From an uncultured Thermodesulfobacteriota bacterium (GTDB taxonomy: Bacteria > Desulfobacterota > B13-G15): 64,000 bases of DNA. Below are positions 18,308-58,270 of this stretch, in pieces. A model generated the notes under the pieces. The model made no database searches, was not told where the DNA came from, and saw only the letters and a list, made by a program, of their open reading frames with translations. The DNA lies in NCBI GenBank assembly GCA_964543765.1, contig CAZIZI010000002.1:78017-142016 (forward strand). The letters run 5' to 3'. The number at the start of each line of letters is the position of its first letter. Position 1 is the stretch's first letter. The position numbers and the translations under genes were made by a program.

Positions 18308-18848
18308 ATTGAAGGGCAGAAGGATGAAAGGACCTCACGGAAGGTTTTTAAGGCCTACTTCCGAAAAGGTCAGAAAAGCCATATTCGATTTGCTTGCGCC
18401 TTATGACATTAAGGGGAAGGTCCTGGACCTTTTCGCGGGAAGCGGCGCTTTGGGTTTTGAGGCTTTAAGCCGAGGGGCCGAAGAGGTGGTTTTTGTCGAA
18501 AAGGATAAGGGGGTGGCGGATTTAATAAAAGAAAACCTAAAACTTCTCGGACTCGAAGGTAAAGCCAAAGTTTTAAATATGGAGGCAAAAAAATCGCTTC
18601 GAGTGCTAGCAGAAAAGGGGTTTATCTTCGATTTAATATTAATGGATCCTCCTTATAAAGATTACGCTAAAATCCACCTTATCCTTGAAGATATAAAAGC
18701 CAAAAAACTTCTTTCTTCCCATGGGTTGGTGATCTTTGAGCATTCGTCCCGTGAAACGCCACCTGAAATTTCCGGATGGAAGCTTCTCTCTAACAGACGT
18801 TATGGTGATACTGCAATAAGTATTTTCATTCTCGCGGACGAAGAATGA
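18288..18848 (+). CDS. rsmD: 16S rRNA m2G966 methyltransferase
   Basis: MRITGG..KGR, RPT, LDLFAGSGALGFEALSRGA, DPPY, RRYGDT. Confidence 0.93.
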   Translation: MRITGGELKGRRMKGPHGRFLRPTSEKVRKAIFDLLAPYDIKGKVLDLFAGSGALGFEALSRGAEEVVFVEKDKGVADLIKENLKLLGLEGKAKVLNMEAKKSLRVLAEKGFIFDLILMDPPYKDYAKIHLILEDIKAKKLLSSHGLVIFEHSSRETPPEISGWKLLSNRRYGDTAISIFILADEE

Positions 18849-19017
18849 GTTTATGTTCTAGCAAGTTTATCTCCACTATCTCCGCATCTACGGTCTTTTC
18901 TTCCCCAAAAAGGTTAATTAAGCGCAATTTCTCACCTTCTGGTATTATAGTTGCAATCTCACTTAATAACTCCTCAAGTTTCCCATCTTTCAGCAAATAA
19001 GCGGTTGACTGACACAT
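18826..19017 (-). CDS. cooT: CooT-family nickel-binding protein
   Basis: 63 aa; MCQSTAY (Cys2), LFGE, NLLEHKL. Confidence 0.8.
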   Translation of the reverse strand: MCQSTAYLLKDGKLEELLSEIATIIPEGEKLRLINLFGEEKTVDAEIVEINLLEHKLILRPRE

Positions 19018-19775
19018 GGTTCCCCTCCTTTTGAAAAGTAATTGATAATGGACAAAGCTAAAGCTTCAAGCGTGTATTCATTAGGCAAAATTTTTGGTTC
19101 GATTCCGTATTTTTTAAGAGCTTCTGCGGTTACAGGGCCAATTACCGCTGCTTGGAGATGGGATGGCCAATTTCCGGATAGGGCTTTAAAGAAATTGTGA
19201 ACCGCTTGAGCGCTGGTAAAAACTACAAGGTCTATTTCATCCAATTCCTTAAGTAAAAAGGGCAGATTATCAGGCATTTCTACCTTATAAAGGTAAACCT
19301 CCATTACTTCAGCACCTTCTTTAAGGAGTTTTTCCTTAAGAAGAGGGCTTGCTTCTTTAGCCCTCAGGAGTAATACCTTTTTTCCTTTAATGCCTTTTTT
19401 TATCATTTCACACGCCAAGGTTTTCGAATCGTATTCCGAAGGCATTAAATCGATCTTTTGGCCGTATTCCGCTAAAGCTTTAGCAGTACCAGGACCTATG
19501 GCCGCGATTTTTGTGGGAAAAGGATCGCGTTTTTCTTTTGGGAGAAATCGTTCAAAGAATATCTTTACCCCATTTTTGCTGGTAAAAACAACCCATTCAA
19601 ATGCCGATAAGTTCTCGATGAGTTCCTCAAAAAAAGGCGGTTTTTCCAATGGGGTTATCTTTAAGGTTGGGATCCATAGAACATGGATCCCCGCTTCCTC
19701 CAAGATCCTTTTTAGAGGGCTTTCCTCTTCCTTAGGTCTTGTTATCAAAACCTTAGGCCGGCTTGAATTGGGCAT
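18990..19775 (-). CDS. hemD: Uroporphyrinogen-III synthase
   Basis: VLITRP, VFTSKNGV, AIGPGTA, FTSAQAV, IGPVTA; start inferred at ATG 19775 overlapping the prfB end. Confidence 0.85.
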   Translation of the reverse strand: MPNSSRPKVLITRPKEEESPLKRILEEAGIHVLWIPTLKITPLEKPPFFEELIENLSAFEWVVFTSKNGVKIFFERFLPKEKRDPFPTKIAAIGPGTAKALAEYGQKIDLMPSEYDSKTLACEMIKKGIKGKKVLLLRAKEASPLLKEKLLKEGAEVMEVYLYKVEMPDNLPFLLKELDEIDLVVFTSAQAVHNFFKALSGNWPSHLQAAVIGPVTAEALKKYGIEPKILPNEYTLEALALSIINYFSKGGEPCVSQPLIC

Positions 19776-20851
19776 AGAGATATGCCTCGATGAAGTCGTC
19801 CAAATCTCCGTCCAATACCCTTTCGGCATCGCTTCTTTCCACATTGGTACGGTGATCTTTTACAAGTTTATATGGTTGAAGGATATAAGACCTAATCTGA
19901 TTTCCCCAGGCGATCTCCTTTTGATTTTTGTGAATTTCCTTCCATTTTTCCAGCTTTTTTTGCCTTTCCAGTTCGTAAAGTTTGGCTTTGAGAAGTTTTA
20001 AAGCCATTGCCTTATTTTGGTGTTGAGACCTTTCATTTTGACACTGGACCACGATGCCAGTTGGCAAGTGAGTTATTCGAACTGCGGTCTCGGTTTTATT
20101 AACATGCTGCCCTCCAGGACCGCTTGAACGGAAAGTCTCTATTTTGAGATCCGATTCCTTGATCTCGATCTTTATGTCATCGGGAGTCTCCGGGAATACG
20201 GAGACCGAAGCGAAGGAAGTGTGTCGGCGTCTACTTGCGTCAAAAGGCGAGATCCTGACTAACCGGTGGACTCCAGTTTCTCCCTTTAAATAACCATATG
20301 CGTACTCTCCTCGGATGAGTAAAGTGGCACTTTTAATCCCCGCCTCTTCGCCCGGGCTTAAGTCGACCACTTCGCTTTTCCACCCTTTCTCTTCGGCATA
20401 TCTCACGTACATCCTCAGTAACATTTCTGCCCAGTCCTGGGCTTCCGTACCTCCTGCCCCCGCATTTATGTTCAAAAAGGCGTTGGCTTTATCATCTTCC
20501 TCGGTAAAAAGCCTTTCGATCTCCCAACGTTTTACTTCTGAATATAGTCTTTTGAGTCTCTCCTCGGCTTCTTGCAGAAATTCCTTGTCTTCCAGAGACA
20601 ATTCGAGCAACGTTTGTATCTCTATTTCTTCCTTTTTTATTTGCTCCCAACGGTGGATCTCCCTTTCAAGATACGCCTTTTCTTGGAGTAACCTTTTTGC
20701 CTTCTGTTGATCGTTCCAAAAATCGGGCTTGGTCTCTTCCGATAGAATTTGATTTAACCTTTCTAATTTCTTAGAAAGGTCAAAGATATCCTCCCAGCAG
20801 GGCTATCCGGCCCTTTAAGTCCTCAAAATTTTGAAACAATTCCTCGTGCAT
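19753..20851 (-). CDS. prfB: Peptide chain release factor 2, translated through a programmed +1 frameshift
   Basis: 23-codon first frame from ATG 20851 ends GGA GGA TAT CTT TGA C; +1 frame continues DLSKKL..PDFWND into the ORF carrying SPF and GGQ. Confidence 0.95.
20779..20794 (-). promoter_or_regulatory. prfB frameshift signal (internal SD plus CTT TGA C)
   Basis: GGGAGGATATCTTTGAC on the minus strand. Confidence 0.93.
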
Positions 20852-50981: not shown

Positions 50982-51930
50982 GATAATTTACGCAGCAGGA
51001 TGTGTGCCTCTTGATTTAAATAACCTTTTTATAACTTCTCCTGATGCTGAAAAGCTGATTCTTGAGGCTGAGCGGGTTGGGTTTCCTCGGAGTACTTGTA
51101 GTTGGATCAAGGGGATTTGGGGTGCGATAAGGAAAAAGGGAATAAAGGAAGTAGTAGCAGTTACCCAGGGTGATTGCAGTAACACCCACGCTTTAATAGA
51201 AATACTTCAGTTTCAAGGCGTTAAGGTTTTACCCTTTGCTTATCCCTTCGATAGGTCACGGGATTTGCTTTATGCTCAAATGGAACGGATGAGGCTTTAT
51301 TTTCAAGTAAGTTGGGAGGATATAAAGAAAAAAAAGAAGGAATTAGACGAAATCCGAGCGCTCGCCCACGAAATAGATCGCCTTTGTTATGAAGAGGGCC
51401 TTGTGAGTGGCTATGAGGACCATTTGTATTTGGTCTCTACAAGCGACATGAAGGGTGATCCCGAAGGGTTTAAAAGGGAGCTAGAGGAATTTATCAAAAA
51501 AGCAAAAACCAGAAAGCCTTTTCGAGAGGAGCTACGGTTGGGATATGTGGGGGTTCCTCCTATATTTAGTGATCTGTATCAAAAGATCGAGTTGATGGGA
51601 GGAAGGGTTGTTTACAATGAAATACAAAGGCAATTTAGTATGCCTTTTGATACGGATGACATTGTGGAACAGTATCTTCTTTACACCTATCCCTACTCTT
51701 TCTTTTACCGTTTGGAGGACATAAAACGGGAGATAAAAAAAAGGGAGATCCACGGTCTTATCCACTACGTTCAAGCTTTTTGTTTTAGACAGATGCAGGA
51801 CATCATCTTGAGAAAGGAATTGAAAATCCCCATTCTGACCCTTGAGGGCGACAAACCCGGCCCCTTGGATGTGAGGACTGAGTTAAGGCTTGAGGCCTTC
51901 CTTGAATCCCTGAGGGACAGGCGATGGTAG
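50944..51930 (+). CDS. 2-hydroxyacyl-CoA dehydratase family protein (third, divergent subunit)
   Basis: IGLTTTVPIE, TCSWIKG, GDCSNT, QAFCFRQ, LEGD, RLEAF. Confidence 0.8.
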   Translation: MREIGLTTTVPIEIIYAAGCVPLDLNNLFITSPDAEKLILEAERVGFPRSTCSWIKGIWGAIRKKGIKEVVAVTQGDCSNTHALIEILQFQGVKVLPFAYPFDRSRDLLYAQMERMRLYFQVSWEDIKKKKKELDEIRALAHEIDRLCYEEGLVSGYEDHLYLVSTSDMKGDPEGFKRELEEFIKKAKTRKPFREELRLGYVGVPPIFSDLYQKIELMGGRVVYNEIQRQFSMPFDTDDIVEQYLLYTYPYSFFYRLEDIKREIKKREIHGLIHYVQAFCFRQMQDIILRKELKIPILTLEGDKPGPLDVRTELRLEAFLESLRDRRW

Positions 51931-52958
51931 TAATTGATGGGTCTTATGGAGAGGGAGGAGGTCAGATTTTACGTACAGCAACAGCCCTTTCGGTTCTTTT
52001 AGGTATTCCCTGTGAAATCGAAAACATAAGGAAAAACAGGCCAAATCCCGGATTAAGACCCCAACATGTGGCCGGTATTAAAGCTCTTTTGAAGTTGACC
52101 CAAGGAGAGGCAGAGGGAGTTGGGGAGGGCTCAGAAAGCCTAGTGCTTTTTCCAGGTAAGTTAAGAGGAGGGAGTTTCGAGATTGACGTGGGAACAGCCG
52201 GTTCCATAGGTCTAGTGTTACAGAGCATAATGATCGTCTCCATAGGCGTTCCTTCTCGGCTTAGGTTAAAAATCCGAGGAGGAACCGATGTGAAATGGGC
52301 ACCTTCCATTTTATACCTCAAAGAGGTGCTTCTACCCCTTTTGAGAAAAATGGGCTATCAAGGGGAGATAGAGCTTTTAAAAAGAGGGTATTATCCCCGA
52401 GGAGGGGGAGAGGTCCTTTTTGAGGTTCATCCTTCAGAACTTAATGGAATTGACCTTCAAAAAAGGGGGGAGATTTTGACAATCAAAGGTTTGTCTCATG
52501 CCTCAAGGGATCTTCGATCAAAAAGGGTCGCCGAAAGGCAAAGAGAAGCACTTCTTTCAGTTTTAAGGACCAAGGGCATGGAGGCACACATAAAGATAAA
52601 ATACGAAGATACCCCCTCAACGGGTTCGGGGATTGACCTTTTTGCCGTCTGTTCCAATTCGATCCTTGGGTCAAATGCACTTGGAGAAAAAGGAAAAAGG
52701 GCTGAAGAAGTGGGAAAAGAAGCGGCTTCCAAACTTCTTGAAGAACTTAATGGAGAAGCAGCCCTTGATCAACACGCTGCCGACCAGATCCTTCCTTACT
52801 TAGCCCTTGCCAAAGGCCCCTCAATCGTTTCCGTCTCAAAGAAAACCGGACACCTGGAGACAAACCTATGGGTCATCCAAAACTTTATAAAAAGAAAAAT
52901 CATAATCGAAGAAAGCTCCTCAGGATACTTGATAATTGTAGAAGATAAAGCCCCTTGA
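51924..52958 (+). CDS. rtcA: RNA 3'-terminal phosphate cyclase
   Basis: IDGSYGEGGGQILR, PGLRPQH, GGTDV, RGYYPRGGG, DQILP, GHLETN. Confidence 0.93.
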   Translation: MVVIDGSYGEGGGQILRTATALSVLLGIPCEIENIRKNRPNPGLRPQHVAGIKALLKLTQGEAEGVGEGSESLVLFPGKLRGGSFEIDVGTAGSIGLVLQSIMIVSIGVPSRLRLKIRGGTDVKWAPSILYLKEVLLPLLRKMGYQGEIELLKRGYYPRGGGEVLFEVHPSELNGIDLQKRGEILTIKGLSHASRDLRSKRVAERQREALLSVLRTKGMEAHIKIKYEDTPSTGSGIDLFAVCSNSILGSNALGEKGKRAEEVGKEAASKLLEELNGEAALDQHAADQILPYLALAKGPSIVSVSKKTGHLETNLWVIQNFIKRKIIIEESSSGYLIIVEDKAP

Positions 52959-52983
52959 CTTGTGTTGAAAGATTCCTTATACT
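52955..52983 (+). promoter_or_regulatory. sigma70 promoter of the FmdE/TonB-receptor operon
   Basis: TTGACT-N17-TATACT. Confidence 0.75.
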
Positions 52984-52994
52984 CAACCTAAAAG

Positions 52995-53088
52995 AAGGGC
53001 AAGAAGCCCTTTTGGTAAGGTAAGAAAAATATATAAAAAGTGAGGAAAGAAGCCATGAAGGCTTTAGGCTTTCATGGCTTTTTGTTTT
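52995..53088 (+). ncRNA. Putative cis-regulatory leader: two C-ANGAA-G hairpins, the second overlapping an intrinsic terminator
   Basis: AAGGGC-AAGAA-GCCCTT (52995-53011); AAGCC-ATGAA-GGCTT (53050-53064); lies between promoter and start codon. Confidence 0.55.
53050..53088 (+). terminator. Leader (attenuator) terminator
   Basis: AAGCCATGAAGGC-TTTAG-GCTTTCATGGCTT (13 bp, one G-U) followed by TTTGTTTT. Confidence 0.8.
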
Positions 53089-53117
53089 GAGGAATAAAAA
53101 TGTGAAGGAGGTGCTAT

Positions 53118-54134
53118 ATGAAAAAATCAAAGTCTATAGGTTTATGGGTGATTTTACTTCTAATTTTCCTTCTCTGTTTTTCCGTTAAAGCCCAACAGCT
53201 TTCTAATGAATTATCAAATTGCTTGAAAGAACTTAAAATCAAAAGAGGTGATCCAAGACTTTTTGTTCTTACAAATGCGGCTTACGTTAGAATTGGAGAG
53301 GTTGATTCGTGGGAGTTAATGTCAATTATTGAAAAGGAAACCGGAACTTCATATGGAAAGAAAAACTTATTGTTTTATCATTCAGAAGAAAAAGTTCCTC
53401 TTAATGTGGTATTTTTTATAAAAGATAAAGGAGAAGGATTAATCTTAAGTTATGATGGCAAAAATTTTAAGAAACAGCTATTCAATTTCAATGATAACGA
53501 ATCGCTCAAAGAGTTGGTCAAAACAAGAAAAGATGCATTTACTATCATAAGCATACTCGACGCATGGGCCAATGATGCGCCCCATGATCTTTTGAAATGT
53601 GCTGAATTTCACAATCATTTATGCCCAGGGTTATTATCGGGATATTTTATTGCAAAATTCATTCAAGAGTATTATCCGCTTCAAGAGGGTCAGAGATACA
53701 TTTATGTTTCTTGTCCTCCTTGGTGTAAAGATGATGCCATTCAAGTTCTATTGGATTTGACCCCGGGGAAAAGGAGGCTATATGTGAGGGATCTTTCTGA
53801 TGAGGAGAAAGGAGCTTTACAGGATTCTGGCGTGGTGGGTGTTTTTATCCTTTGGGATGAGAGTAAGAAGGAAGGGAAGGGGGTGATTCCTTCTTTTAAT
53901 TGGGATGTAGCCTATCAAAGGTGTGGTATAGACAGAAAAGCGCTTGCAGGTGAGGAGGCCGTTTTTGGGAGGATGAGGCTTAATAGGTGTCTTTTGAAAA
54001 AAGACTTTAAAAAGGAAGACTTAGTTAAGGTCCTCAAGGAAGTTGAAGTTAACGAGGCTCTTTTGAAAGAGCTTTTGCGAGGAGGTAATCCATATAAACT
54101 TTTAGATTTGTTAACTTCAAAAGGAGGTTTATAA
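53118..54134 (+). CDS. Exported FmdE-family metal-binding protein
   Basis: Signal peptide; FHNHLCPGLLSG and PWCKDDAIQ motifs. Confidence 0.78.
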   Translation: MKKSKSIGLWVILLLIFLLCFSVKAQQLSNELSNCLKELKIKRGDPRLFVLTNAAYVRIGEVDSWELMSIIEKETGTSYGKKNLLFYHSEEKVPLNVVFFIKDKGEGLILSYDGKNFKKQLFNFNDNESLKELVKTRKDAFTIISILDAWANDAPHDLLKCAEFHNHLCPGLLSGYFIAKFIQEYYPLQEGQRYIYVSCPPWCKDDAIQVLLDLTPGKRRLYVRDLSDEEKGALQDSGVVGVFILWDESKKEGKGVIPSFNWDVAYQRCGIDRKALAGEEAVFGRMRLNRCLLKKDFKKEDLVKVLKEVEVNEALLKELLRGGNPYKLLDLLTSKGGL

Positions 54135-54135
54135 A

Positions 54136-56208
54136 ATGAGAAAGGGTTTTATGTTTTTAAAGCTTTTAGTTTTGTGGTTTTTGATGAGTAGACTTCTAAT
54201 TATTCAAGCTGTGGGAGAGGAACTCAAGAATGAGGAAAAAGCAGTGGAATTGAAAGAGGTAGTAGTAACAGCCACTCGCACCGAAAAACCGATAGAAGAT
54301 GTTCCTGGTAGAGTTGAGATTTTAACGAGTGAAGATATCCAAAACTATGCAGTATCTGGTATGAAAGTGGATGAGATCTTAAATCTTCTTTCGGGAGTTA
54401 ATGTAATTAGGACACATGGTGTTATGACGCTTGTCCCTACAGTTACGTTAAGAGGTCTTTCAAACGAACAGGCAAGAACGCTTGTTTTATTAGACGGAGT
54501 ACCCCTCAACAAAGCAGATACCGGTAACGTTAACTTAAATAGGATTAACTTGAATGAAATTGATAGGATAGAAATATTTAAAGGTCCGGCTTCTTCTATT
54601 TACGGCAATAATGCAATGGGAGGAGTGATTAATATCATTACTAAAAAACCTGAGAAAAAATTTGAGGGTAAAATCTTAACCTCTTACGGTAGCTATAATA
54701 CTTACGCTTTAGATCTTTTTCTTTCCGGACGGTTAAAAGAAGGCGAATCAACTCCCTATTTTAGGTTATCCTCGCATTATCTTGATACTGACGGTTACGT
54801 ATCTTTGCCCAAAGAAAAGCGAACCCCCTTTACCGTTAAACGTTTTACTCAGGAAGGAATGTTGAATCTTTTATTGGGTTATGAGTTTAAAAAAGATAAC
54901 TTTATAGAGTTCAAAATGGAATATTTCGATAACAAGATAGGAGAAGGTGAGAAAATATATGCTAAAGACGGTGTTCATAGGGAATTTGATACATGGGCTT
55001 ATTCTCTTCGGTATGCCGGTAATTCAGGAGATAAAAAGTGGCAATTTAAAAGCTTTTGGAGCAATGAAAATTATAAACGTGTAAGTGAAAGATTAAGAGC
55101 TGGGAGATATACTAGGTTTGATGTGGATTCTGATAGAACTGATATGGGGATTGATGGAACGTTTTCATTTAATTTAGGGAAGAATCAATTAGTTACTTTA
55201 GGTATTGATGTAAGAGAAGGAAGAGTTGACGCATGGGACATTTATAAAACTTCCCCCGATAGAGCACATAACGAAGGGAAACTAAGAATTTACGGTATAT
55301 GGATTCAAGATGAAATTTTGCTAGAAAAAGGAAAAATTTCAGTTCTTGGGGGGATAAGATATGACTATGCTAAGTTTTTTGACGGTAGTTTTTATTCGAC
55401 AATTAGGCCATTTGACAAGTTAAGCGGTGAGGTTGAGGAAAATTCATGGGAAGCCATTTCTCCAAGGCTTTCAATTAGATATAAGTGGACGCCTCATTTT
55501 AGCACCTATGCTTCGTATGGAAGAGGATTCAGAGCCTCTATCCTCGATGACCTTTGTCGATCTGGAATCATGTGGGGGTTGTATAAGGTTGCAAATCCGA
55601 ATCTTAAACCCGAAAAAATTGACACCTTTGAATTAGGCTTTGACCTAATTGGGAAAGAAAACTTCAAAGTATCATCTTCTCTTTACTACTCCATAGGGAA
55701 GGATTTCCTTTACTATGTTCCAACGGGAGAACAGCTCGACGGGCGTCCTATTTACCGAAGAGAAAACATAGATAGGGTTATCTCCTATGGAGCAGAGTTT
55801 GATCTTCACTATGCATTACAGAAAGGGTTAATAGTATTTGTCAATTATACGTATAGTAAGGGTTATATAGATAAATTTGAACAAAAACCTGATATTGAAG
55901 GACAAACGTTAACAAGAAATCCAAAGCATATGTTAAATGGTGGACTTACTTGGCTTACCCCTTACATAAATATTAATTTGACAGCTAATTATAAGAGTAG
56001 TCAGTTAGTATACACGAATGAAATCTTACAAACAACAGCACGGTTAAAAGCTTATACAATAGCTAATCTTAAGATTTGGAAAGAATTTAAGAAAGGATTT
56101 CAAACTTCTTTTAGTGTTCAAAATATTTTTGACAAAAGATATACTGAAAGTAGAGAAGAAAAATCGCCTGGGCGTATCTTTATGATAGAAGCAAGTTATC
56201 GGTTTTAG
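54136..56208 (+). CDS. TonB-dependent receptor
   Basis: EVVVTATRT, LRGL..LVLLDGVP, RIEIFKGPASSIYG..AMGGVINIIT, NPNLKPE, C-terminal YRF. Confidence 0.93.
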   Translation: MRKGFMFLKLLVLWFLMSRLLIIQAVGEELKNEEKAVELKEVVVTATRTEKPIEDVPGRVEILTSEDIQNYAVSGMKVDEILNLLSGVNVIRTHGVMTLVPTVTLRGLSNEQARTLVLLDGVPLNKADTGNVNLNRINLNEIDRIEIFKGPASSIYGNNAMGGVINIITKKPEKKFEGKILTSYGSYNTYALDLFLSGRLKEGESTPYFRLSSHYLDTDGYVSLPKEKRTPFTVKRFTQEGMLNLLLGYEFKKDNFIEFKMEYFDNKIGEGEKIYAKDGVHREFDTWAYSLRYAGNSGDKKWQFKSFWSNENYKRVSERLRAGRYTRFDVDSDRTDMGIDGTFSFNLGKNQLVTLGIDVREGRVDAWDIYKTSPDRAHNEGKLRIYGIWIQDEILLEKGKISVLGGIRYDYAKFFDGSFYSTIRPFDKLSGEVEENSWEAISPRLSIRYKWTPHFSTYASYGRGFRASILDDLCRSGIMWGLYKVANPNLKPEKIDTFELGFDLIGKENFKVSSSLYYSIGKDFLYYVPTGEQLDGRPIYRRENIDRVISYGAEFDLHYALQKGLIVFVNYTYSKGYIDKFEQKPDIEGQTLTRNPKHMLNGGLTWLTPYININLTANYKSSQLVYTNEILQTTARLKAYTIANLKIWKEFKKGFQTSFSVQNIFDKRYTESREEKSPGRIFMIEASYRF

Positions 56209-56248
56209 TTGGATTTAAAAACATTTGTGAAGTATTTCAAGAAGAATA

Positions 56249-56353
56249 AGGTCACGAAGGCCTAAAAGATCAATCCACGTTCTTTTCGGTTGGAATTAAG
56301 ATCCACGAAGGGTCCGATCTCTCTTGAAGAGAGCCAAAAATTTCGGATGGAGG
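56249..56353 (+). ncRNA. Second putative leader with two C-ACGAA-G hairpins, the second competing with an SD-sequestering helix
   Basis: AGGTC-ACGAA-GGCCT (56249-56263); GATCC-ACGAA-GGGTC (56300-56314); TCCACGAAG can pair with TTTCGGATGGA (56341-56351) over GGAGG. Confidence 0.5.
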
Positions 56354-56354
56354 T

Positions 56355-56819
56355 GTGAAGATGCGGAAGGTCCTTTTATTCCTAAGAGCTTTGATCTTGG
56401 GAGGTCTGATGGGTTTACTTTTTATAATTCCCGTTATAAGAGAGGAACTTAAGAAATTCGAAGAGTTACCTGAGGTTGTGGTTGTTGGAGAGAAAATTAT
56501 TACTCCTACTAAAGAAACAGTAGAAACGGTTTATACAGGAATTGGAATCACCAAAAAGGGTATTGAATTATCTGGGGAAAAGGGGAGTAGCAATGTTTGG
56601 TCTATTTTAAATTTTTTACCTGGAATCTGTTTTGAGAGTCCTGACCCAACGGGTATTTCTTCTACCCAGCGGACGATTACCATAAGAGGGGTAAGTGGTT
56701 CCCTGGGGACTATGTCTGTTGAAGGAGTTCCTGTTTATTTAGCCTTAGGGATAAAGCCTGAAGTATCCGAAGGAGATAAAGCAGTTTATTTATACGACCA
56801 ATCAGGCTTTATAGGATAG
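56355..56819 (+). pseudogene. Truncated second TonB-dependent receptor (N-terminal plug only), fused to IS256 sequence
   Basis: LPEVVVVGEK, LNFLPG, TIRG..VEGVP plug motifs; after about 56730 reads into transposase-like VYLALGIKPE. Confidence 0.72.
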
Positions 56820-57011
56820 AGAAGGAAATAAAGAGGAGGGTGAAGGTGGTAGAGGTATTTCCAGATGAAGGGTCAGCTGAGAGGTTGTTGTATTTGATTT
56901 TGAGATGGATAGATGATAGATTAAACTCAAGGAAATTAAGGGGGGTTAATGGGGGCTAAAATAAGGATTACCATGCCCTTAAAAAGTTTTTACACAATAA
57001 AAGAGATACTA
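56730..57011 (+). mobile_element. IS256-family remnant (internally deleted transposase plus right end)
   Basis: PVYLALGIKP, then YPKEIKQFIYTTNQ..RIEKEIKRRVKVVEVFPDEGSAERLLYLIL; end-like TTACACAATAAAAGAGATACTA. Confidence 0.72.
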
Positions 57012-57156
57012 TGACTAACGAGATTAAAAATAGAAATTTCTCCATTGTTATTTAACACTTGCTTCAGTTTATTCCTAAATACCAAATTATACACTAAGCT
57101 TCACCTACAAGAAGCAAGTAAATAAAAAGAAAGAATATGTTGAAAAAATCCTTCCA

Positions 57157-58270
57157 TCACGCTTTATTGTTAAAGACTTCTTCATATACTTTCCAAGTTT
57201 CTTCAGCAGTTTTTCTCCAGCTAAATAATTTTGACCTCTCTAAGCCTTTTTTAGATAACTCCTTCCGTAAATCTTCGTCATTCAAAACCCTATACATTGC
57301 TTCAACCAATTCTTCAACATCATATGGATTTACAGTAATCCCCGCATTTCCAACTACTTCTGGTAAGGAAGATATATTAGAGGTTATAACTGGACATCCA
57401 CATGCCATAGCTTCAAGTGGAGGCAATCCGAACCCTTCATAAACAGAAGGATAAACAAACAAATCAGCTGTATTATAAAATTTAACCAAATCTTCTTTTG
57501 GTACATATCCAGTAAAAATAACTTCATTTTTAAGATTCAAAGCGTCAATTGTTTCAAAAATATCATCATATTTCCATCCTTTCTTTCCAACAATTACAAG
57601 TTTATGGTTTGTTCTTCTTCTTTTTGACTCATAAAAAGCTTTAATCAAAGTTGGAATATTCTTCCTCTTTTCCAATGTACCAACATATAAGACAAATGGA
57701 AAGTTTATGCCATATTTTTTTTAACAATTCTTCCTTTACCATTGGTTTTTAGCTTCTTCTATAGGTTTATAAATTTCTTCAGCAGCTAAATATATGACTT
57801 TTATTTTATTCTCAGGAATTTCTAAATATTTAATACAATCATTCTTTGTATTCTGTGAAACTGCAATAATCATATCTATTTTATCTTTTATTAGTTTCAA
57901 TGTTGAATTAAAAAGAAGAACCACTTTTTTGTATGGGTTTCTGGGTACAATAGAGGAGTTAAATCATGAATAGTTAAAATTTTTTAACTTCTTTATTAAA
58001 AAAGAAAGGTAAAAGCTGATTCCATAGATGAGAAGGAAAATGTAAGACATCTACGTCAAATCTTTTTATGATGTATGGAAGTCTAATAATGTCAACTATC
58101 TTCGTTAATATTCTAAAGATATTTGACGAAAATCCTGAATTATAGATCTTAGTGATAAGGTACAAATTGTGAGTTTTTCCTATGTTAATTAGATTTTCAA
58201 TAAGATTATATGCATAGTTATCTAGAGCTGTTCTTTTCGTATATAAGTAAGATATTATACCTACCCTCAT
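57157..58270 (-). pseudogene. GT4 glycosyltransferase, broken into several frames
   Basis: Pieces 58270-57974, ILTIHDLTPLLYPETH, 57924-57736, 57675-57157 (EGFGLPPLEAMACG); breaks in A-runs near 57980, 57925 and 57715-57750. Confidence 0.82.

Follow-up and report, generated by a model that had tools for sequence, protein, structure and literature searches.

The stretch of DNA analyzed here (the window) comprises 64,000 nucleotides (nt) from the genome of an uncultured Thermodesulfobacteriota bacterium (contig CAZIZI010000002.1 of assembly GCA_964543765.1). The element in question is a putative regulatory RNA leader, consisting of two small hairpins and a terminator, which precedes genes for a secreted FmdE-domain protein and a TonB-dependent outer-membrane receptor. 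Coordinates are positions in the window unless a contig (C-number) or a locus (L-number) is named; G-numbers denote genomes. Leader and operon are made up of the following features:

52955–52960 and 52978–52983, + strand: putative sigma-70-type promoter, TTGACT, 17 nt, TATACT, read in the sequence with 10 of 12 matches
52995–53011, + strand: hairpin 1, AAGGGC-AAGAA-GCCCTT, loop AAGAA with C-G closing pair; extended 8-bp stem 52993..53013, −11.3 kcal/mol
53014..53048, + strand: A-rich linker between hairpins 1 and 2
53050–53064, + strand: hairpin 2 (putative antiterminator), AAGCC-AUGAA-GGCUU, C-G closing pair, −7.3 kcal/mol; 6-bp stem 53049..53065
53047–53083, + strand: intrinsic terminator of 17 pairs with a U tract to 53088, −23.6 kcal/mol, z-score −6.8
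53105..53120, + strand: ribosome-binding site AAGGAGG and ATG of the first gene, from the sequence and the list of open reading frames (ORFs)
53118..54134, + strand: secreted FmdE-domain protein, 338 aa, signal-peptide-like N terminus (Pfam FmdE, 1.1e-19)
54136..56208, + strand: TonB-dependent outer-membrane receptor, 690 aa (Pfam Plug and TonB_dep_Rec)

A preliminary description of this locus had placed two hairpins with C-ANGAA-G pentaloops between a promoter and the FmdE/TonB-receptor genes, with a terminator overlapping the second, and had held that hairpin 2 and the terminator exclude each other. Both statements proved correct: the elements can be read in the sequence as claimed, and folding placed all of hairpin 2 (5′ arm, loop, and 3′ arm) within the 5′ arm of the 17-pair terminator, so that the two folds are mutually exclusive. 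None of 200 shuffled sequences was as stable as the terminator. Folding revealed a G+C-rich stem followed by a U tract, as is characteristic of intrinsic terminators, at a site that a simple terminator scan had not listed. The hairpin cores are 38 nt apart, corresponding to a loop-to-loop distance of 54 nt. Within a 6-kb scan (51500–57500), the TTGACT-TATACT site was the top promoter-like match, and the number of such sites was at chance level (14 vs. 13.2 in shuffles); judged from its position, the transcript start would fall approximately 7–10 nt 5′ of hairpin 1. Leaders of other genomes have a TTGACA-like box at the equivalent place. The secreted FmdE protein is the sole FmdE copy in the genome, and the receptor gave only subfamily-level matches in NCBIfam, every one under the cut-off. 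An 11-codon frame (53055–53090), preceded by a GAGGAAAG box, opens at an AUG within the hairpin 2 loop; a leader peptide starting there was rejected, as most homologues read ACG or AAG at this position.

Within this genome, a T run follows 12 of the 36 C-A-N-G-A-A-G hairpins with at least five pairs, compared to 24% of all hairpins with 5-nt loops. This count alone is weak and not decisive; it is the comparative sequence data that decide that the hairpins exceed chance. Relatives of the FmdE-like protein were found in 15 of 61 related genomes, and nine FmdE loci were inspected. Five of the nine (L001, L002, L003, L008, and L009) have a tandem pair with a loop spacing of exactly 54 nt and stems that differ, with swaps such as GGGC/GCCC vs. 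GGUCC/GGACC and AGCC/GGCU vs. GGCC/GGCC. Two loci (L004 and L006) have a single hairpin plus terminator, and inspection of L005 and L007 yielded no leader. The 54-nt loop spacing of the window leader is thus shared by the homologous FmdE leaders L002/L028, L003/L029, L008, and L009, and it is found in L108; among 16 tandem sites, spacings range from 46 to 64 nt, with a second class at 20–22 nt (C18 and C4).

We aligned 37 hairpins from this and other genomes, chosen as 5-nt loops with a C-G closing pair and at least four pairs. All of them share the closing C-G, G3, and A5, A1 and A4 are found in at least 90%, and the stems are variable; stem positions are paired in 86.2% of cells vs. 65.6% in shuffles, a difference partly built in by the selection for at least four pairs. 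The terminator offered an independent test. RNAalifold applied to 13 tandem leaders recovered both hairpin 1 and the terminator helix. The stem of hairpin 1 differs yet pairs in homologous leaders (RNAalifold pair 8:18 is GC in four, UA in four, CG in three, and AU in one), and N, the only free base of the loop, is paired to the terminator 3′ arm in all 13 (CG 9, UA 2, AU 1, GC 1, none broken). In the terminator helix, 93.8% of cells are paired, changes on both sides occur in 9 cells vs. 2.3 in shuffles, and the covariation score was unmatched by any shuffle. This covariation indicates selection on the hairpin-terminator overlap, and the preliminary description had named covariation in homologous leaders as a check. 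Linkers between hairpins are not kept across families, and in the inspected loci of both phyla considered below the leader always lies on the same strand as the downstream gene. By sequence comparison, the leader family is characterized by one to three hairpins with a 5-nt loop A-N-G-R-A, an invariant C-G closing pair, and a last hairpin that shares bases with the terminator.

A whole-genome scan returned 165 loose matches, mostly in coding sequence. Inspection of their context left six leaders before genes, five with a terminator and four with a recognizable TTGACA-type promoter box:

Leader 1, 52955–53088: FmdE-domain protein and TonB receptor
Leader 2, window 56246–56317: 154-aa ORF
Leader 3, contig C4, position 104: TonB receptor, CobN/BchH-like chelatase subunit, ChlI/ChlD fusion, and periplasmic binding protein
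Leader 4, contig C18, position 887: MinD/CooC-like ATPase, TrmO-like protein, binding protein, FecCD permease, and ATPase
Leader 5, contig C18, position 19457: ExbB-ExbD-TonB
Leader 6, contig C29, position 2373: OprB-like porin, DUF4198, CbiM, NikL, CbiQ, and CbiO

In other genomes, the genes after the leader encode NikA-like binding proteins with NikB/C, NikM/CbiM, DUF4198, cytoplasmic FmdE, FecCD importers, and ExbBD-TonB. Transporters of the nikKMLQO type have been predicted to import nickel in delta-proteobacteria, under the control of NikR (Rodionov et al. 2004, PMC545781), and TonB-dependent receptors are known nickel importers (PMC11247825). The six leaders would thus mark a nickel-acquisition regulon, with gene content pointing to nickel rather than to cobalt or a nickel chelate. 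The control of metal uptake that the preliminary description had suggested is supported by the downstream genes and narrowed by them to nickel acquisition; likewise, the covariance-model scan that it had recommended for this and related genomes showed that leaders recur before nickel-transport genes. A canonical cobalamin riboswitch (RF00174) is present separately and as a single copy (C3:110950–111138, − strand, 122.7 bits), which suggests that B12 is sensed separately; it precedes a 627-aa ORF and three more ORFs near the contig end (locus L027).

To describe the distribution of the leader, we used two covariance models. The first (R1), built from the single hairpin, was too weak alone: inspection of 60 regions around its matches yielded 16 real leaders, 3 unclear cases, and 41 coding regions, giving 13 verified carriers among 61 genomes (G000–G007, G009, G011, G018, G035, and G051). 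The second (R2), built from the 13 tandem leaders, was run at an expectation value (E) ≤ 0.01 on an even sample of 151 genomes from the phylum and matched in 43 of them. All 24 R2 loci inspected were hairpin-terminator leaders, including three from one genus with an ACGUA loop. In that genus (L202 in G029, L207 in G106, and L210 in G139), ACGUA replaces ACGAA before a CbiQ-like gene, and the terminator 3′ arm is altered to match. Two extra R2 matches in the genome under study, on C21 and C10, turned out to be coding sequence and a plain terminator.

The relatives belong to Thermodesulfobacteriota. When FmdE loci from all species genomes were considered, 10 of 78 had a leader (L028–L032, L036, L037, L039, L048, and L077), L077 being a locus from an Armatimonadota metagenome-assembled genome (MAG). 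The phylum of L077 (the second phylum) was represented by 121 genomes and searched with R2 at E ≤ 0.05. Matches were obtained in 44 genomes, and the best 30 loci comprised 23 real leaders, 1 unclear case, and 6 false matches; loops of the type A-N-G-G-A (ACGGA and AUGGA) occur at six sites. In addition to those in Thermodesulfobacteriota, relatives of the secreted FmdE-like protein are numerous in MAGs of anaerobic methanotrophic archaea (ANME), Methanosarcinales, Methanophagales, and other archaea (L052–L105), and none of the archaeal loci among the 78 FmdE loci has a leader. The high nickel demand of these archaea fits a role of the protein in nickel acquisition.

A domain search for NikR_C found no match in the genome under study, which is 96.7% complete; the control search matched in 5 of 14 genomes. 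NikR was present in none of the 13 verified leader carriers vs. 23 of 61 genomes overall, and in 6 of 43 R2-positive vs. 66 of 108 R2-negative genomes. Leader and NikR thus appear to be largely complementary across genomes. One NikR-bearing genome, in which the leader was not found, has NikR, CooT, FmdE, and TrmO-like genes in a cluster (G048:C91:5947–7910).

Several proteins and RNAs were considered as partners of the loops and rejected. The ANTAR domain (PF03861) was found neither in this genome nor in the eight others of its family, although 26 of 61 relatives matched, and it occurs in two of the 13 verified carriers; moreover, the loops are pentaloops with A1/G3 and not hexaloops with A1/G4. 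CsrA (PF02599) was not found in this genome, with the control matching in three genomes, and at least 90% of the 37 loops read GAA, not GGA. A cytoplasmic FmdE was not found here, the secreted copy being the only one, and TrmO_N is unspecific, as it occurs in 36 of 61 relatives. Loop pairing with the tRNA T-loop or with the anti-Shine-Dalgarno sequence was dismissed by reasoning only, since AGGAA and AAGAA loops do not fit.

The preliminary description had stated that the binding protein was not evident, which is true for the window. Genome comparison nevertheless provides a strong candidate, the DUF3842-CooT pair, which in this genome is encoded on another contig:

C5:34846–35232, − strand: DUF3842 gene, paired with CooT
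C5:34650–34829, − strand: DUF3842-linked CooT gene (Pfam PF10133; solved CooT chain 6FAN, E 4e-9)
Window 18826–19017, − strand: second CooT gene, 63 aa, starting with MC, not DUF3842-linked, overlapping the end of a HemD-like gene (18990–19844)

Across the 151 genomes of the phylum, DUF3842 was present in 40 of 43 R2-positive vs. 18 of 108 R2-negative genomes, and CooT in 40 of 43 vs. 50 of 108. CooT occurred in 56 of the 58 DUF3842-bearing genomes, and the two genes were adjacent in nearly all loci inspected. The second phylum gave 34 of 44 R2-positive vs. 24 of 77 R2-negative genomes for DUF3842, which was also present in 20 of 23 verified carriers there. A sensitive re-search of five DUF3842-positive, R2-negative genomes uncovered real leaders in three, one of them directly 3′ of DUF3842-CooT. 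Further carriers that were reached through their loci, including the Armatimonadota MAG, had DUF3842 in five of five cases.

The association extends to gene order. Among the inspected R2 loci, leaders were seen directly before DUF3842 and CooT genes. By coordinates, the leader lies within approximately 250 nt of DUF3842-CooT in 10 genomes from seven families of the phylum (G043, G150, G083, G126, G071, G102, G065, G109, G164, and G064) and within approximately 240 nt of DUF3842 in nine genomes of the second phylum; in strain NaphS2, it is found approximately 200 nt before DUF3842. NaphS2 and Desulfocarbo indianensis are cultured organisms that carry the leader. Both arrangements occur, i.e., the leader followed by DUF3842-CooT, and DUF3842-CooT followed by the leader and transporter genes. 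The pattern of leader and DUF3842 repeats over many families and two phyla.

DUF3842 has more than 7900 homologues with 60–70% identity across lineages. Its AlphaFold model (pLDDT 77.9) predicts an alpha/beta domain of a generic, Rossmann-like type that contains a glycine-rich loop. A Foldseek search of the model against the PDB gave no match at E ≤ 0.001, only generic Rossmann- or receiver-like folds, and the DUF3842 profile found no solved relative among PDB sequences, no usable match in the ESM Atlas, and none in NCBIfam. CooT belongs to a small family with a solved structure deposited under that name. It is generally described as a nickel-binding dimer that uses Cys2, and its Pfam family was once labelled as RNA-binding by prediction; all 16 DUF3842-linked copies have Cys2.

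By computation, hairpin 2 and the terminator cannot form together, the terminator is by far the more stable fold, bases of the loop are paired to the 3′ arm once the terminator has formed, and the targets are nickel importers. Given this difference in stability, the unaided RNA would form the terminator by default, and transcription would stop before the genes. In many copies, the terminator 3′ arm would pair first with the loop bases and thereby gain a foothold to displace the hairpin. A trans-acting factor that grips the loops could block this invasion and allow the polymerase to read through. Because the downstream genes import nickel, such a factor should bind the RNA when nickel is scarce and be released once nickel-bound. 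DUF3842 and/or CooT, a conserved two-gene unit, may represent this factor.

We assign a probability of roughly 55% to the reading that the leader gates nickel-acquisition operons by hairpin-terminator competition, with DUF3842-CooT named only as the best candidate partner. Its parts differ in strength. That the element is a nickel-regulon attenuator built on such a competition is very likely, and the sensor is probably a protein rather than the RNA alone. That this protein is DUF3842 and/or CooT, as the genomic association suggests, falls somewhat short of an even chance. The boldest version is a little more tentative still, namely that DUF3842-CooT could be a new kind of nickel sensor, a nickel-free RNA-binding antiterminator that clamps C-ANGRA-G loops and replaces NikR in a large share of anaerobes from at least two phyla.

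A number of observations weigh against this assignment. The modelled fold of DUF3842 is generic and has no telling structural neighbour, and nickel binding by CooT and the RNA-binding label of its family are background knowledge, not results of this analysis. Related genomes are not independent, and the Fisher values of the genome comparisons therefore overstate the associations. Furthermore, 13 of the 43 R2-positive genomes are represented by weaker, uninspected matches, and R2 matches weaker than approximately 1e-3 include false ones. Some leader carriers have no DUF3842 match (G164; G083 and G123, with weak uninspected R2 matches; G292, G203, and G251 in the second phylum), others have no CooT match (G051, G106, and G123), and in the DUF3842-positive genomes G031 and G027, R2 found no leader at E 1. 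In the genome under study, the pair on C5 has no leader nearby, and its CooT is devoid of the histidine found at that place in most relatives. Nickel, as opposed to cobalt or a nickel chelate, is assigned by gene content alone. Finally, co-occurrence and adjacency would also be expected if DUF3842 and CooT were merely nickel chaperones of the regulon, and several genomes have the two genes 3′ of the leader, in the place of any other target.

The last point leads to the explanation that the same attenuator is served by another loop-binding protein, DUF3842 and CooT being only nickel-handling members of the regulon, which we consider unlikely. It would account for the genomes in which DUF3842/CooT stand 3′ of the leader like targets (G126, G071, and G164; G254, G210, G247, and G176 in the second phylum), for the exceptions to the co-occurrence, and for the cluster of CooT, FmdE, TrmO-like, and NikR genes in G048, as such genes accompany nickel genes under NikR too. 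However, no other protein candidate emerged (ANTAR in 2 of 13 carriers, CsrA and cytoplasmic FmdE not found here, TrmO_N in 36 of 61 relatives), and DUF3842 follows the leader far better than CooT alone, with 18 vs. 50 of 108 leader-negative genomes.

A protein-free riboswitch, with Ni(II)/Co(II) or a nickel complex as the ligand of the loops, is clearly improbable. Small tandem-hairpin riboswitches such as guanidine-II are generally known, the conserved loop purines could bind metal, and the leader occurs in some genomes with neither a DUF3842 nor a CooT match (G123). A metal-stabilized hairpin that prevents termination would, however, activate the importers when metal is plentiful, the wrong logic for uptake. 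In addition, single 4–6-bp hairpins with 5-nt loops offer a very small binding surface, the linkers are not conserved between families, and the tight link to a protein pair would be left without explanation.

We regard it as very improbable that the inverted repeats are DNA operators of a factor that blocks elongation. They are palindromes just 3′ of a promoter and approximately five helical turns apart, but it is their asymmetric 5-nt centre that stays constant, while the arms vary with pairing kept; a palindrome bound by a protein on DNA would show the reverse. The centre also covaries with the terminator 3′ arm, and the leader strand is always that of the downstream gene.

Antitermination of the ANTAR type has a smaller chance still. 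The preliminary description had proposed an antitermination leader by analogy with ANTAR targets, and its core stands: the element has the layout of a 5′ attenuator with a last hairpin that excludes the terminator, and the loop is conserved, not the stem. No tie to ANTAR is supported beyond the analogy of two hairpins with the second overlapping the terminator, in view of the A1/G3 pentaloops and the failure to find the domain in this genome and eight family members, even though 26 of 61 relatives match. Chance hairpins beside an ordinary terminator, which the weak enrichment within this genome alone would permit, can be practically dismissed, as the element recurs with covariation before functionally coherent genes in two phyla.

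Regarding known RNA families, Rfam 15 gave nothing in the window at the gathering score and only chance matches at E ≤ 10, e.g., the trpB motif with 23.9 bits vs. a cut-off of 59; 12 related loci gave only one tRNA and one pan motif at the gathering score. The Rfam check proposed in the preliminary description thus returned no family at the site. Its wording of a possibly undescribed motif is nevertheless doubtful, as a published candidate may fit the leader. A 2017 survey of 224 motifs by Weinberg et al. (Nucleic Acids Res 45:10811) reportedly includes NiCo-AnGGAG, candidate cis-regulatory hairpins, often several in a row, with the loop A-n-G-G-A-G upstream of nickel/cobalt transport genes, whose function and partner are said not to have been known then. 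Likeness to this motif lies in the loops, which together with the closing G read A-N-G-R-A-G before nickel genes, and true AnGGAG loops are found in L028, L032, and L077 (3 of 37 hairpins) and at six sites of the second phylum; in contrast, at least 90% of the 37 hairpins have A at loop position 4 (AnGAAG), and the others apart from AnGGAG are near variants. The name NiCo-AnGGAG does not appear in the main text of the survey (PMC5737381), and the literature search gave no match for it. The identity of the leader with this motif is a tentative lead only, and it lowers the novelty of the RNA motif itself.

Other systems share single traits with the leader. ANTAR targets (EutV, NasR, and AmiR) likewise have tandem hairpins that are recognized by their loops, the second excluding a terminator, but theirs are hexaloops with A1/G4, whereas the leader has A1/G3 pentaloops in a genome and family in which no ANTAR protein was found. 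BglG-type antitermination resembles it functionally, and the leader is not a member of that class. The hairpins bound by CsrA/RsmE (A-N-G-G-A) are similar in loop sequence and closing C-G, and a CsrA dimer is generally known to bridge two hairpins; here, however, GAA replaces the GGA core in most copies, and CsrA was not found in the genome. The iron-responsive element and its protein IRP1 (apo-aconitase) offer a parallel in logic only, as general knowledge has it that the metal-free protein binds a hairpin loop at metal scarcity; that system has another loop, is eukaryotic, and acts on translation or mRNA stability, and no homology is implied. The NiCo (czcD) and cobalamin riboswitches also control metal or cofactor genes at the RNA level, but they are large, complex aptamers, and neither matches at the site, even at E ≤ 10. 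The NikR regulon has the same targets, nikKMLQO/nikMNQO and TonB-dependent nickel uptake (PMC545781, PMC11247825); NikR acts on DNA operators, whereas control here would reside in an RNA leader of a genome in which NikR was not found.

A literature search yielded no account of a covariation-backed mechanism, of the complementarity with NikR, or of a link to DUF3842-CooT; searches for CooT were swamped by the crystallography program Coot, and nothing relevant was retrieved for DUF3842. As far as these searches reach, the hairpin-terminator mechanism, the NikR complementarity, and the DUF3842-CooT link appear to be new, even if the motif was already listed in 2017.

Nickel feeds hydrogenases, carbon monoxide (CO) dehydrogenase and, in partner archaea, F430. 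We know of no other nickel-uptake control in anaerobes that lack NikR. The leader would mark a nickel regulon in approximately one quarter to one third of the genomes sampled from the two phyla. It would place TonB receptors, FmdE-like proteins, CobN-like chelatases, and FecCD transporters among the proteins of nickel acquisition, and it suggests a specific partner that is open to experimental testing. If DUF3842-CooT were indeed the sensor, this would be the first role for DUF3842 and for CooT paralogues not linked to CO dehydrogenase, and the first RNA-level nickel-uptake regulon.

Further features flank the leader and its operon:

51924–52958: RNA 3′-phosphate cyclase gene, the upstream gene, which ends at the promoter
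56246..56317, + strand: second tandem hairpin pair, AAGGUC-ACGAA-GGCCU and GAUCC-ACGAA-GGGUC, 51 nt apart, 3′ of the receptor gene
56355..56819, + strand: ORF of 154 aa (or starting at ATG 56382), hydrophobic N terminus, 3′ of the second hairpin pair

No terminator with a U tract follows the second tandem pair, which must therefore act differently or serve only as a binding site. G003, a genome of the same genus, has kept the pair, with GCGAA as its first loop. The 154-aa ORF had no match in Pfam or NCBIfam.

In many leaders (L029:240–275, L008, L009, L110–L112, and others), a third small hairpin lies in the terminator loop; it has a C-AGAA-G tetraloop and resembles a shortened motif. At four FmdE loci (L003, L004, L005, and L009), the gene after the FmdE-like gene encodes a small Cys/Gly-rich protein starting with MCAPISVTTGGG, in place of the TonB receptor. 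In L003 and L008, the small Cys/Gly-rich gene has its own promoter with a palindrome-like AATGTAGCTGCAA element.

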